Below, piece by piece: positions 2-62,970 of a stretch of DNA of 64,000 nt. Position 1 is the first letter of the stretch; each line of letters opens with the position of its first letter. The DNA comes from an uncultured delta proteobacterium (GTDB lineage: Bacteria; Myxococcota_A; Polyangia; Polyangiales; B10-G4): positions 768,001 through 832,000 of the forward strand of contig CAVSGI010000020.1 of the NCBI GenBank assembly GCA_963727445.1. The letters run 5' to 3'. The position numbers were made by a program, and so were the translations under genes. The notes beneath the pieces were generated by a model, which worked only from the letters and a program-made list of their open reading frames with translations, had not been told where the DNA came from and made no database searches.

Positions 2-241
2 GGCGAGCTCTCCAACGAGCTCCTCTCGAACGCGTTCCGCCATCAGATCACCAAGGAGAACCGCGCCACCATCGAAGCGGTGACCATGCAGGCGATCGCG
101 GGCGCGATGGGGCCGCCGAGCCTCGACGAGCTCGAGGACTTCGACTTCTCCGAGGAGCCCTTCGACGACCCGCTGGGCATCGCCCAGAGCTGGGAGGAGA
201 AGTACCAGAAGAAGGGAAAGAAGGAGTCGGAGGAGCAGTGA
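2..241 (+). CDS. hxsD: His-Xaa-Ser system protein HxsD, 3' part (5'-truncated by window edge)
   Basis: Absent from the ORF track; frame 2 is open from base 2: GELSNELLSNAFRHQITKENRATIEAV...DDPLGIAQSWEEKY...*. The GE-x-x-NELL...R-x-x-I pattern is HxsD-like. TGA overlaps the next GTG, and the gene lies upstream of hxsB. Confidence 0.7.
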   Translation, partial: GELSNELLSNAFRHQITKENRATIEAVTMQAIAGAMGPPSLDELEDFDFSEEPFDDPLGIAQSWEEKYQKKGKKESEEQ

Positions 242-459
242 CCGAGCTGCGCTTCGACAAGGGCATCTACGTCGGCGAGGCGGTGGACGAGGCGGTGAAG
301 CGCTTCGGCGGCTTCGCGGATTTCGAGCTCTCCGAAAACGACGAAGCGTGGGTGGTGAAAGTGACCGCCAAAAAGCCAGCGCTGCAGAAACGGATCGTCG
401 GCGAGCTCCAGAACTTCGCCCTCGGTCTCACCATCAAGAATCCGAATCGGGGCGTTTGA
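238..459 (+). CDS. HxsD-like small protein (73 aa)
   Basis: FDKGIY..EAV..AV..F and GELQNFAL patterns resemble HxsD; overlaps both neighbours (GTGA, TGATG). Confidence 0.7.
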   Translation: MTELRFDKGIYVGEAVDEAVKRFGGFADFELSENDEAWVVKVTAKKPALQKRIVGELQNFALGLTIKNPNRGV

Positions 460-1952
460 TGATCCTGACGCGAATCGGCAAGACCGACGCGAGCCATCCT
501 GCGCTCTTCCGCGTTCGTGAAGTCGGCGGCAAAGCGTTGATCACGAATCAGGAAGGACGCTGGCTGCTGCTCACCGAGGAGGAGCTCGGGCTCTTCGCTC
601 GCGGTGAAGCGAAGGAGGGCACGGAGCTCCACGAGCGCCTGAAGTCCCACAACTTCCTGCGCGACCATTACGACGTGCTCGCCGCCGCGGAGATGCTCCG
701 CCAGCGAAAAGGTTTCATTCACTACGGGCCGAACCTCCACGTCTTCGTGATCACCCTCCGCTGCAACGAGACCTGCGTCTACTGCCACGCCTCGCGCGCC
801 AACATGGACGCGGTGCACACCGACATGAGCCCGGAGATCATCGAGAAGTCTGTGGATCTCGTGCTGAAGAGCACCAACCCCTACGTCACCATCGAGTTCC
901 AGGGCGGCGAGCCGCTGGTGAACTGGGAGGGCATCAAGCACACCATCGAGTATGCCCTCGAGAGGAACCGCTCGGTCGGCAAGAACCTCGAGTTCACCAT
1001 GGTCTCGAACCTCGCGCTGATGACCGACGAGATCATGGACTACCTCCTCGAGCACAAGGTCCAGATCTGCACCAGCATCGACGGGCCGGCGCACGTGCAC
1101 GACAAACAGCGCAAGCTCCCCGGGATGAGCTCGCACGACCGCGCGGTGCACTGGCTACGACGGATCAACGCGCGCTACGAGGAGATGGGCCTCGACTCGA
1201 CCCTCTATCACGTCGAGGCGCTGCTCACGACGACGCGCGCCGCGCTGCCGCTTCACCAAGAGGTGGTCGACACCTACGTCGGCCTCGGGGTGAAGTCGCT
1301 GTTCCTGCGCCCGCTCGATCCCTTCGGCTTCGCGGAGAAGACCGCGGACAAGATCGAGTATCCGCGCGAGGAGTACATGGCGTTCTATCGGAACGCCCTC
1401 GACTACATGATCGAGCTCAACAAGAAGGGCACGCAGATCCTCGAGCGCTACGCGGCGATCTTCCTGACGAAGATCCTCCGCGGCGAGGATCCGAACTTCC
1501 TCGACATCCGCTGGCCGGGCGGCGGCGGTATCGGCCAGGTCGCCTATAGCTACGACGGGAAGATCTTCGCCTCGGACGAAGGCCGCATGCTCCACGAGAT
1601 GGGCGACGACACCTTCGAGATCGGCCACGTCGACACCAGCACCTACCGCGAGCTCATGGGTCATCCCACCGTCCGCGCCCTCGCCCTCGCCTCGAACCTC
1701 GAGCAGAACCCGGACTGCGTGAGCTGCACCTACCTGCCGTACTGCGGCGTGCCGCCCGTCCACAGCCACAAGACCCAGGGGACGATCTTCGGCCGCATGC
1801 GCGAGTCGACCCTGTGCTACGTCCACAAGCACATCCAGGACTACCTCTTCGAGAAGATCGCCGAGGGCAACCCCGAGACGCTCGAGATCTTCGAGCGGTG
1901 GACGACGAATCGCCTCCGCGACCACTTCCTGCACGCGGCCGGCGGGGTCTGA
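459..1952 (+). CDS. hxsB: His-Xaa-Ser system radical SAM/SPASM maturase HxsB
   Basis: CNETCVYC, IEFQGGEP, YDGKIFASDEGRML and C-terminal CVSCTYLPYCG...LC. ATG 459 overlaps the upstream TGA and is preferred to 348. Confidence 0.85.
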   Translation: MILTRIGKTDASHPALFRVREVGGKALITNQEGRWLLLTEEELGLFARGEAKEGTELHERLKSHNFLRDHYDVLAAAEMLRQRKGFIHYGPNLHVFVITLRCNETCVYCHASRANMDAVHTDMSPEIIEKSVDLVLKSTNPYVTIEFQGGEPLVNWEGIKHTIEYALERNRSVGKNLEFTMVSNLALMTDEIMDYLLEHKVQICTSIDGPAHVHDKQRKLPGMSSHDRAVHWLRRINARYEEMGLDSTLYHVEALLTTTRAALPLHQEVVDTYVGLGVKSLFLRPLDPFGFAEKTADKIEYPREEYMAFYRNALDYMIELNKKGTQILERYAAIFLTKILRGEDPNFLDIRWPGGGGIGQVAYSYDGKIFASDEGRMLHEMGDDTFEIGHVDTSTYRELMGHPTVRALALASNLEQNPDCVSCTYLPYCGVPPVHSHKTQGTIFGRMRESTLCYVHKHIQDYLFEKIAEGNPETLEIFERWTTNRLRDHFLHAAGGV

Positions 1953-60768: not shown

Positions 60769-62107
60769 CGGGGAGGCGCCTCTTGGATCGCCTTCGCACC
60801 GCCTCGGGGCCGGTGGGCCCCTTTCTGAGATCGAGGAGCATGCCGCCCGGGTCGCTCTCGCGCACGGCATCCACACAGGCGGCGATGATGGCCTCGAGCA
60901 CCGCGGTGTCACCGCTCTGATTGCGATAGTGCATGTTGAAGGACGCGCTCCGCGCGAGGGCGCGCGCGCCTTCGTCGCGGCCGGTCAGGACGAAGTCGAC
61001 CCGCGACCCCTCCTGAACGAAGCGGTAGAGGCACGCGCGGCGCTGGAGCACGATGTCGTCGAGGGTCGCGCCCGTTCGCTCCTCCACGCCCTCGATCAGC
61101 GCGGCCCACAGGGGCTGATCGGTCTTGGGCGCCGTGCCTCTGCCCGGCTGATCCGAGCCCACCCACAGCCCGTCCTCGGGCTCTTCCCAGGGGGTCGTGC
61201 GGGGATAGGGCGTGAGCAGATCCTGCTCCCAGCCGTGCTTGGAGATGTACGGGTGGGTGAGACCCAGGCAGCTCTCGCTGTGTTCGCACTTGGCCTCGTA
61301 GAGACAGGCGAACTTCGGATAGGTCTCGTAGAACTCCTCGACCACGATCACGTCCGGCTGGGTGTTGTCCTGGAGCTTTTCGTGCTCGCCGAGCAGGCAT
61401 CGCGGCACGTACTTCACCGCCGCTTCGATCCCGTATTCGCCGCAGCGCGTGAGGGCGCGGCGGAGTGAAGGCGCGAGCTCGGCCATGGGCGACAGGAGCC
61501 CCCGCTCGTCGGCGTAGTCCTCCATGGGGAGGTAGTTCCACCACTCCATCCGCACCGGCGACAGATCGCGGACGGTGTCCACGATCTCCGCGAGGTGCGG
61601 CTGGTTCAGGGTGGTGAGCACGGTATTGGTCATCAAACACACGCCGAGGGCCCGGAGGTTCTCCATCCCCGCCATCGCCTCGTCGAAGCTCCCTTCGCGC
61701 TGCGAGATGTAGTCCTGGGTCGCGGCGTCGTGTCCGTGGAGCGACACGAAGTACTCGTCAATCCCCGCCTTCACCAGCTTCTCGGCAAACGCCGGGTCGG
61801 CCATCAGCCTTCCGTTCGTCTGCAGCCGAATGTGCTCGAAGCTCCCCGAGGCGTGCGCGTAGTCGACGTAGTCGAAGAGCTTCTTTTCGAGGGTGACCTC
61901 GCCGCCGGTGAAGGTCACGCGCCGGTAGCGCCGGCTCTCGGTGTTGTCATCGACGGTCTTGATGAACTTCTCGAAGGGGATGCCTTTGAAGTAGTTCATC
62001 CCCTCCTGGACGATGCAGAAGCGGCACGCGCTGTGGCAGTGGAAGTCCACCGTGATGGTGAGGTCCTCGAAGCGCGTCGGCTCGAACCGTCCCTTGTAGC
62101 TCTGCAT
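60749..62107 (-). CDS. Radical SAM protein, HxsC-like, with an extra C-terminal domain
   Basis: CHSACRFC, FTGGEVT, QTNG, VSLHG, VPRC, CLYEAKCEHSESCLG; ATG overlaps the upstream stop. Confidence 0.85.
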   Translation of the reverse strand: MQSYKGRFEPTRFEDLTITVDFHCHSACRFCIVQEGMNYFKGIPFEKFIKTVDDNTESRRYRRVTFTGGEVTLEKKLFDYVDYAHASGSFEHIRLQTNGRLMADPAFAEKLVKAGIDEYFVSLHGHDAATQDYISQREGSFDEAMAGMENLRALGVCLMTNTVLTTLNQPHLAEIVDTVRDLSPVRMEWWNYLPMEDYADERGLLSPMAELAPSLRRALTRCGEYGIEAAVKYVPRCLLGEHEKLQDNTQPDVIVVEEFYETYPKFACLYEAKCEHSESCLGLTHPYISKHGWEQDLLTPYPRTTPWEEPEDGLWVGSDQPGRGTAPKTDQPLWAALIEGVEERTGATLDDIVLQRRACLYRFVQEGSRVDFVLTGRDEGARALARSASFNMHYRNQSGDTAVLEAIIAACVDAVRESDPGGMLLDLRKGPTGPEAVRRRSKRRLPVTPGEG

Positions 62108-62970
62108 CAGACGGTCCCGTAGTAGCTCGTCTTGCGGTAGACGAGCTCGCCCTTTTCGTCGTGGAGGTAGTCGATCCCCACGTCGAAGTAGAGGTGCTCG
62201 AAGGAAGCGCGGTGCTGGCTCACGAAGCCGGTGATGGCCTCCGGGTAGTCGAAGCGCTTCAGGAACCACTGGAGCTGACCCACGTCGATGCCCGAGTAGT
62301 AGATCGCGTCGCAGTAACGCTTCTTGGCGACGCAGACCTTCTTGCAGGCGAAGAGCTCCGGGATCAGCACCTTCGAGAGGGTCCGCGGATCCGAGAAGTC
62401 GACGTAGAGGCTGGCCTGAATCAGCGAGAGCACCTCGTCGATCTCGGGCTTGGGTGCCATGAACTTGTAAGTGTTCTCGAGCTGGATGGCGTCGGCGCGC
62501 ACCTCGTAGCTGCGGCCGGCGTGGGCGTCCTCGCCGGCGAGGTAGAGATTGAATTCGTCGACCGTGCCGCCGGCGGCCGCGGCCGTCAGATCGAAGCTGA
62601 CCATCATGTAGGGGATCGACTCGCGGATACGGGGCACGACGCGAATCCAGGGCGACAGGGCCTCGGTGAGCGAGGTGATCGTCGCCTCGGGCGACTCCTT
62701 CTGCGGGTCGTAGAAGTAGAGCTCCCACCAGAGCCGCTCGCCGTCCCACTTCACGCCCCACACCGTGAGATCGCGCCCTACGTGTGCCTGGATCGCCTCG
62801 ACGGGCTCGCGAAGCGCGTCGTACCCGCCGCCGGTGCAGAGAGAGCTCCACAGGAGGTTCTCGCTCCGCAGCTTGCCCTGCCAGGGTCGCCGCGGCCGAT
62901 AGGGCTCGAGGCAGTAGTCGAAATAGCGGTCGTGCTCGCTCGAGGGCAGGAGCTGTGAGGACGCGAGCAT
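62107..62970 (-). CDS. Hypothetical cytoplasmic protein, translationally coupled to the rSAM gene
   Basis: 287-aa aromatic-rich ORF with host-like codon usage; TGATG overlap. Confidence 0.75.
   Translation of the reverse strand: MLASSQLLPSSEHDRYFDYCLEPYRPRRPWQGKLRSENLLWSSLCTGGGYDALREPVEAIQAHVGRDLTVWGVKWDGERLWWELYFYDPQKESPEATITSLTEALSPWIRVVPRIRESIPYMMVSFDLTAAAAGGTVDEFNLYLAGEDAHAGRSYEVRADAIQLENTYKFMAPKPEIDEVLSLIQASLYVDFSDPRTLSKVLIPELFACKKVCVAKKRYCDAIYYSGIDVGQLQWFLKRFDYPEAITGFVSQHRASFEHLYFDVGIDYLHDEKGELVYRKTSYYGTV

Follow-up and report, generated by a model that had tools for sequence, protein, structure and literature searches.

As described in one report (PMC13128918), the canonical His-Xaa-Ser (HXS) system of Escherichia coli blocks phage DNA entry. 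HxsB, HxsC and HxsD mature the HxS repeats of HxsA and are required for its cleavage and export, a change of +8 Da (of +C/-4H type) maps to SHRSS, and the product remains a protein. The survey in that report found more than 99.8% four-gene systems and placed 99.7% in Pseudomonadota, and its main text contains neither "Myxococc" nor "paralog". Here we analysed a stretch of 64,000 nucleotides (the window) from an uncultured delta proteobacterium of the Myxococcota_A, order Polyangiales (assembly GCA_963727445.1, contig CAVSGI010000020.1, positions 768,001 to 832,000), which carries hxs genes and further genes for radical S-adenosylmethionine (radical SAM) enzymes. With a probability of about 0.72, these genes belong to an expanded and dispersed His-Xaa-Ser system of HxsA4 type, whose HxsB and roughly ten HxsC-like radical SAM enzymes modify the (His-Gly-Ser)n core of two precursors encoded just upstream. 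A preliminary description of this DNA had taken Hxs chemistry to be uncharacterised, a statement now partly outdated by the published antiphage activity and +8 Da change. The system is already catalogued in part, by three NCBIfam type-4 models.

HxsC-like enzymes, precursors and their inheritance

Genes were called with a codon model trained on the 9.47-Mb source genome, and the called proteins were scanned against protein families. Coordinates below are those of the window, with negative values lying upstream of its position 1, and genes are named by their first coordinate. The seven radical SAM genes and eight radical SAM domains of the preliminary description were all recovered, and HxsB, the HxsD-like protein and the enzyme at 18427 exceeded the cut-offs of their Hxs family models. 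The hxsD, hxsD-like and hxsB genes placed at 2-1952 are also present, with the correction that hxsD is truncated by the window edge and starts at -229. The core genes are:

1..241, plus strand: 3' part of hxsD (gene start -229, 156 amino acids), predicted leader-helix binder
238..459, plus strand: HxsD-like protein (NF038315, 72 bits; cut-off 41)
459..1952, plus strand: HxsB radical SAM maturase (TIGR03978, 550 bits; cut-off 370)
18427..19464, plus strand: HxsC4 radical SAM enzyme, a catalogued family (NF038332, 624 bits; cut-off 500; clade of 11, support 1.0)
26084..27022, minus strand: HxsC-like radical SAM enzyme of the most degenerate subfamily (family scan, tree, motif counts)
27081..28007, plus strand: HxsC-like radical SAM enzyme (family scan)
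45324..47615, minus strand: two-domain radical SAM enzyme, class-B-like N-terminal domain and HxsC-like domain (scans, motifs)
49383..51167, plus strand: HxsC-like radical SAM enzyme, C-terminal extension bearing the CxxC-x5-CxG tail (scan, tree, motifs)
60749..62107, minus strand: HxsC-like radical SAM enzyme with a C-terminal domain here called X (scan, profile searches, tree, motifs)
-3669..-1858, outside the window: HxsC-like radical SAM enzyme fused to a class I methyltransferase (family scan)

HxsD itself scored 44.7 bits, just under the TIGR03976 cut-off of 50; 12 of 12 aligned members match the model, the profile match has a probability of 96%, and judged by its sequence it is a true HxsD homolog. 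All six window enzymes besides HxsB carry CxxxCxxC and GE[PV], and five carry the CxxC-x5-CxG tail, of which 60749 keeps only C-x5-CxG, the CxxC half being missing in 5/5 orthologs counted. These shared motifs had been described correctly; the N-proximal position does not hold for 45324, nor the mid P-x-C for 49383, which has PxxC instead and a PxC plus CxxC-x5-CxG near its C-terminus. Within 45324 the C-terminal domain is the HxsC-like one (motif at residue 469), and the first radical SAM domain (residue 224) is of another type, with partial matches, far below cut-off, to ApyD and Sden_1168; we take it to resemble B12-dependent class B enzymes. Both CxxxCxxC motifs are present in 19/19 orthologs of 45324, and in the 26084 subfamily the motif is kept in 20 of 25 near-full-length orthologs. 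For the five enzymes besides 18427, HxsC4 or HxsC stood within the top two matches, far below cut-off.

Across the called proteins of the genome, CxxxCxxC..GE[PV] occurs in 22, and the C-x5-CxG tail in exactly ten of these: six in the window, the methyltransferase fusion at -3669, and three on contigs C10, C13 and C15, the C13 paralog having tandem domains. Seven of the ten lie within ~66 kb of the genome, a concentration beyond chance, and ten is a lower bound because the assembly is 86% complete. Identity among the six window enzymes is 20-27%, and to their own orthologs elsewhere mostly 45-88%. A FastTree phylogeny (171 domains, 286 columns) recovered one ortholog clade per window enzyme, each with 4-12 relatives and a support of 0.98-1.0, except for 27081 (0.33). 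The six window domains and four outside domains form one clade at 0.95, and the C15 paralog clusters with the canonical HxsC of three plasmids (support 0.974). On these sequence relationships, the window enzymes are ancient HxsC-like subfamilies.

A six-frame repeat search located HxsA4-1 at -956..-645 (103 amino acids, 16 HxS repeats) and HxsA4-2 at -578..-285 (97 amino acids, 13 HxS repeats), which score 87 and 92 bits against the NF038313 cut-off of 55. They are the only two HxsA4 precursors in the genome, both beside hxsD, and the local order reads radical SAM-methyltransferase, an unrelated opposite-strand gene, A4, A4, D, D-like and B. Each has an acidic N-terminus, a conserved leader (consensus LPxFxR..L...QREISDRA from 33 sequences), (HGS)n-type HxS repeats and a terminal Trp; the repeats contain no Arg or Lys, and a peptidoglycan-binding domain is lacking. 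A genome-collection scan found 505 stretches that encode a source-type HxsD, and all locus counts given here refer to the best 80 of these, many of which end at contig ends. HxsB and the HxsD-like protein were each encoded at 72 loci, the methyltransferase fusion at 52 and HxsC4 at 34. An HxS-repeat open reading frame lay within 10 kb of hxsD at 54 loci, and where none was near, repeat frames were found elsewhere in 10/10 genomes, eight of them over cut-off. Repeat number ranged from ~8 to 59 among untruncated examples.

Co-occurrence was examined in 41 genomes from the same order as the source and in a phylum-wide set of 91 genomes. G000 and eight negative genomes belong to both samples, and the genomes are related by descent, so that the counts are not independent. 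In the first sample 15 genomes had HxsC4-like matches, 14 had hxsB, 14 had both and 26 had neither, with one exception to the pattern (G001, 86% complete, 590 contigs). Fourteen of the 15 had 5-14 matches, and the remaining one, G016, had a single match and a canonical-like locus. Across the phylum, source-type HxsD was found in 36 genomes, all with 3-17 HxsC-like matches (counted from at most 20 scored candidates per genome), while 54 had neither and one had a single match. Presence follows whole families (7/7, 6/6 and 4/4 against 0/10 and 0/4), which suggests vertical inheritance. The preliminary description had proposed one enlarged Hxs variant acting as one multi-enzyme pathway, and this is supported by a related paralog group that is all-or-none with hxsB and hxsD; neither unrelated families nor independent phyletic patterns were found when that outcome was checked.

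The six window enzymes sit in separate transcription units, with thyA, folA, pdxST and speA between them. In neighbourhoods fetched around matches from 14 relatives, G040, G035, G014 and G023 carry these orthologs in compact clusters, and several relatives place the 27081 ortholog next to orthologs of 26084 and of a small protein at 40979. The G023 cluster is already interrupted by thyA, folA, pdxST and speA in the same way as the window, so the dispersal in the source appears to be an inherited rearrangement. In near-complete genomes the parts can lie megabases apart, as in G069, where hxsD maps to 4.69 Mb and the precursors to 0.96 and 3.58 Mb. Cultured hosts with core genes at their loci include Plesiocystis pacifica SIR-1, Enhygromyxa salina and Nannocystis species.

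Individual loci add several observations on precursors and neighbours. At L208:8015-8524 a twin-arginine signal replaces the usual leader of an HxsA4-type precursor, which suggests export of the whole peptide. More distant phylum members (L210-L222) have a leader of roughly LPxxKKxVxxFLxxEEG followed by a hydrophobic stretch, presumably resembling a pilin-type leader; the source leaders lack the hydrophobic part. A prepilin-type leader protease was considered and rejected, as the two A24 peptidases of the source genome lie in unrelated contexts, one of them in a Tad/Flp pilus locus. HxsA4 repeats continue in frame, without a stop, into HxsC4 at L134:12477-13901, either as a fusion or as an assembly error. 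G035 holds a second, divergent and complete Hxs locus (L013:6500-17800) with a precursor ending in HGQW, two HxsD-type genes and an HExxH gene. G016, which is without the array, encodes an HxsA of canonical style, which has HRSHSSHRS repeats and ends in a beta-rich domain (L045:10787-11362). In the source, a ~55-bp unit recurs in several copies, direct and inverted, just after the radical SAM-methyltransferase gene (L001:10140-10520, about -1860 to -1480), and a 4HBT-type thioesterase lies directly upstream of that gene (L001:7848-8261, at -4152) and near hxsD at 11 loci. A gene 15 kb past the window (L066:14979-17108) joins an MNIO (MbnB/TglH/ChrH) domain to a zinc dehydrogenase; it lies near two further radical SAM genes and a JmjC-like gene that has orthologs within the hxs clusters of G014 and G040. 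Flavin halogenase-like genes (L007:12433-13989, L142:3632-5347) and an unnamed ~570-amino-acid family recur in the clusters of relatives; the latter was seen in 10 loci or genomes and had no match among the called proteins of the source genome.

Predicted leader recognition and tailoring

HxsB, HxsD, the HxsD-like protein and 63 residues of HxsA4-2 were modelled as a complex, with a 33-row alignment for each. The model scored 0.84, and the best of three controls 0.41; the score mark used for such models had been attained by 116 of 157 solved complexes, as against 2 of 215 mismatched pairs, figures that are rough for a four-chain job. Runs shared at least 60% of contacts, with a partner predicted local distance difference test score (pLDDT) of at least 59. 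Leader residues 6-9 (the LPxF-type motif) are predicted to contact E56, N59 and L62 of the HxsD-like protein, three of six invariant columns that had been found invariant before modelling, and the leader helix to contact HxsD 94-110 and HxsB 406-411. The repeats received no confident placement. The model supports HxsD and the HxsD-like protein as putative leader-recognition adaptors.

The window also encodes candidate partners of the array:

40979..41479, minus strand: short protein, Tat-like RRSFL signal plus stand-alone X domain; a core member absent from the preliminary description (sequence, profile searches)
54234..56264, plus strand: multi-pass membrane protein with an N-terminal X domain, distant paralog of 56265, putatively GT-C-like
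56265..58184, plus strand: multi-pass membrane protein, weakly PMT/GT-C-like, accessory (PMT in 7/77 members, best E 6e-5)
58181..60768, plus strand: sugar-donor cassette of GT2 glycosyltransferase (58181-58870), nucleoside triphosphate (NTP)-sugar transferase (58901-59836) and epimerase (59833-60768)
62107..62970, minus strand: protein with a predicted ABBA aromatic/peptide prenyltransferase fold (fold search)

Outside the window, a protein at C21:241693 carries an HEMSH motif of HExxH type. Its family occurs in 12 of the 41 genomes, every one of them array-positive, and at 21 of the 80 loci it lies within 10 kb of hxsD; Atlas neighbours of the L128 ortholog are named alpha-ketoglutarate (alpha-KG)-HExxH hydroxylase (score 0.97-0.98). 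For 62107, a model with a pLDDT of 93 gave 69 matches at E<=0.001, the top ones among the matches listed all being prenyltransferases, including AmbP1, LimF and KgpF (best E 2e-6, template modelling score about 0.45-0.5). Searches of PDB sequences with 62107 gave nothing significant. It was found in five of the 41 genomes, adjoining the 60749 ortholog in all five.

The 40979 family is present in 13 of the 41 genomes, all with the full array, and 23 of 36 members have a twin-arginine pattern; we take the RRSFL signal of 40979 to be of the Tat (twin-arginine translocation) type. Its X domain is an unnamed module of ~95 amino acids which iterative profile searches found at E<0.002 in nine genome proteins, of which five had served as seeds: 40979, the C-terminus of 60749, the N-terminus of 54234, a further radical SAM protein on C12, three adjacent C6 proteins (two resembling B12-type radical SAM enzymes), the C10 paralog and a C23 protein. 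A weaker match to it is seen in the 56265 family (78% against 1% for a control segment). The domain was modelled as four strands followed by two helices (pLDDT 89). Foldseek returned no match at E<=0.001, the best rows being weak helix-grip/KA1-like ones with Z up to 4.5, and no PqqD or RiPP recognition element (RRE; RiPP, a peptide made on the ribosome and modified after translation) was among the matches listed.

These parts can be assembled into a proposed pathway. The HxsD-like protein would grip the LPxF of the leader, while HxsD and an HxsB helix near its C-terminal cysteine cluster would hold the leader helix, as the model predicts. By analogy with HXS of E. coli, HxsB and the HxsC group would then make radical cross-links or carbon additions on the His and Ser of the repeats, each old subfamily probably providing a distinct step or a distinct seat in one complex, and SAM-derived carbon may come from the methyltransferase domain fused at -3669 and the class-B-like one of 45324. 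The HExxH enzyme would hydroxylate the product, and in some lineages the ABBA-fold enzyme may prenylate it. Leader removal and delivery to the envelope, possibly via the Tat protein 40979, and glycosylation there by the GT-C-like proteins in some lineages are speculative last steps. Most likely the system makes a constitutive product of the envelope, such as a barrier or metal-binding polymer, and is not a mobile defence island. Housekeeping genes interspersed with the array are bystanders, as is the carbamoyltransferase module discussed below.

A bolder version, which we consider unlikely, is a line of 15-20 enzymes in myxobacteria, scattered over the chromosome and vertically inherited, leading to a cross-linked, hydroxylated, prenylated and glycosylated (HGS)n envelope polymer. 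The ~95-residue domain would serve for docking and hand the peptide from the cytoplasmic radical SAM enzymes to the Tat carrier and on to membrane glycosyltransferases, and antiphage HXS would be a stripped-down offshoot.

Competing explanations

Several points weigh against the expanded system as proposed. None of the 15 genome matches to TIGR03977 (HxsC) exceeded the cut-off, the best reaching 94 against 268 bits; one unrelated radical SAM protein nests among the paralogs (support 0.55), and the union of all paralogs with canonical HxsC is supported at only 0.517. Four chains with custom alignments lie outside the calibration of the modelling tool. HxsA4-1 and HxsA4-2 show no hydrophobic stretch or signal and nothing past the terminal Trp, and no leader protease or transporter recurs within 10 kb at the 80 loci. 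The prenyltransferase assignment of 62107 is at fold level only (8-12% identity, root-mean-square deviation 6-8 Å), and the GT-C similarity is weak, with no PMT match in the window's own proteins and Pmt1 at E 0.14. Finally, ten enzymes for one tripeptide repeat are hard to rationalise; some may therefore be non-catalytic or act on other substrates.

The same chemistry could also serve HXS-type antiphage defence, with a basic repeat trapping phage DNA in the periplasm. This role is compatible with the expanded system, and we hold it possible but doubtful. The A, B, C and D components are homologous to those of the proven system (PMC13128918), and some partners are export-related. However, the source precursors, with no Arg or Lys in their repeats, no peptidoglycan-binding domain and no signal peptide, differ from such a trap. 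Defence loci are typically compact, whereas the present genes are scattered over megabases and their presence follows whole families. PADLOC returned generic viperin radical SAM matches only.

The main chemical rival is the release of a small molecule from each repeat, in which the enzymes would turn every His-Gly-Ser unit into a cofactor, a modified imidazole or a metallophore that is cut from the peptide, with prenylation or glycosylation to follow. In the biosynthesis of pyrroloquinoline quinone (PQQ) and mycofactocin, a small molecule is likewise cut from a peptide. The freely varying repeat number, the many enzymes for one motif, the scattered, housekeeping-like inheritance at family level and the variable halogenase, JmjC, PhyH and UbiA neighbours would all suit such a route. 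Nevertheless, no conserved protease was found near the core, the Tat-like signal of the L208 precursor suggests export of a whole peptide, and the canonical product stays a protein (PMC13128918). We judge this explanation improbable and prefer modification of an intact (His-Gly-Ser)n peptide.

The preliminary description had instead suspected a pathway that builds or modifies a sugar or glycoconjugate, with the radical SAM array working mainly alongside the glycosylation operon and a carbamoyltransferase module (19988-24848). What survives of this suggestion is a membrane protein family and a shared domain. The GT-C-like 56265 family occurs in nine of the 41 genomes, all hxsB-positive (one being the canonical-type G016 at a weak E value), and the X domain is common to radical SAM enzymes and 54234. 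A GT2/NTP-transferase/epimerase cassette also stands beside hxs genes at a second, independent locus (L128), but this is one of 80 loci, and an ortholog of the NTP-transferase was found in 0/40 relatives at E<=1e-45. On these counts the soluble cassette was rejected as a core member and kept as a rare accessory, and glycosylation is at most accessory in some lineages. The carbamoyltransferase module was likewise rejected as a member. The carbamoyltransferase occurs in 9/15 Hxs-positive and 9/26 negative genomes (Fisher p 0.19), appears in none of the relatives' fetched hxs neighbourhoods and adjoins hxs genes only in the source, and its module is intact in two relatives with no hxs gene in the fetched flanks. 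Moreover, six of the 14 genomes with at least five HxsC-like matches have no 56265 match, and the constant partners are the precursors, encoded upstream of hxsD in the source, and peptide-tailoring enzymes. A sugar pathway as the main function is thus very unlikely. The membrane proteins 54234 and 56265, with 8-9 hydrophobic segments in a crude scan and nothing significant in PDB sequence searches, may contribute glycosylation as an accessory step.

That six unrelated radical SAM genes fell by chance near a small hxs operon is scarcely credible: low pairwise identity, separate transcription units and the intervening thyA, folA, pdxST and speA would allow it, but it is contradicted by the co-occurrence results with their all-or-none pattern, by the compact clusters of relatives, and by a cysteine tail limited to ten proteins and a single clade at 0.95.

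Two further features of the window concern its sequence. The block at 2109-8103, directly after hxsB, has a guanine-plus-cytosine content of 63-65% against 69%, atypical codon use, large open reading frames and an FG-GAP repeat, and is likely a foreign insertion. Frameshift-like splits or shortenings affect genes at 2109-5973, 22547-24848, 24845-26054, 28800-30851 and 41729-45314; the counterpart of the 22547 part in a relative is one 743-amino-acid protein, and speA is without ~100 N-terminal residues. This suggests an assembly prone to insertion and deletion errors, not real pseudogenes. A search of the window for tRNA and tmRNA genes found none.

Comparison with described systems

That 36 of 91 phylum genomes retain about ten ancient radical SAM subfamilies as a set points to a conserved pathway, probably with new peptide chemistry. 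Cluster-based mining would miss such a kit where its genes lie megabases apart. A search by title and abstract start, with subscription journals and supplements outside its range, found no paper describing the expanded form or HxsA4. The present analysis adds the scattered inheritance at family level in this phylum, a model of leader binding, the X domain common to several of the proteins, partners of HExxH and ABBA-fold type, and a sorting of the envelope genes into linked and unlinked ones. The substrate, the candidate hydroxylase and prenyltransferase, the unnamed domain, the cultured hosts and the predicted role of HxsD in leader recognition offer handles for further work, and the last of these bears on antiphage HXS too.

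All three NCBIfam type-4 models (HxsA4, NF038313; HxsC4, NF038332; HxsD_rel, NF038315) are passed in the source, and they name only those three pieces; the nine other HxsC-like genes, the X domain, 62107, 40979 and the membrane proteins passed no specific model in the scans run. Among other peptide pathways, those pairing a radical SAM enzyme with an alpha-KG-HExxH enzyme likewise combine both with a His-containing precursor. In the ChlH type, as summarised in PMC12636437, the HExxH enzymes hydroxylate Asp or His of radical SAM-cross-linked peptides and a single radical SAM enzyme forms the cyclophane, whereas the source has HxsB, ten distant paralogs and a long repeat. Cyanobactin-type and other ABBA prenyltransferases (LimF, KgpF, PagF, AmbP1) have the fold predicted for 62107 at 8-12% identity, and LimF geranylates His (PMC11002830). 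The poly-cyclopropylglycine peptide of TvgA/TvgB, as described in PMC9062424, offers a likeness by description only: a radical SAM enzyme modifies a tandem short repeat several times, as proposed for the source, though with another repeat and a single enzyme.

The closest relative is canonical HXS (TIGR03976-03978), with which the source shares HxsB over cut-off, HxsD homology, an HxS-repeat substrate and the CxxC-x5-CxG tail. Canonical loci have a compact D-B-C-A order with one HxsC adjacent to hxsB, whereas the source has ten HxsC-like genes, two HxsD-type proteins and extra tailoring enzymes, with its closest HxsC relative on another contig (C15) and the remaining members at distances of 16-60 kb or on different contigs. 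Canonical HxsA carries a signal peptide and a peptidoglycan-binding domain; the source precursor has neither and consists of a leader followed by an uninterrupted (HGS)n-Trp.

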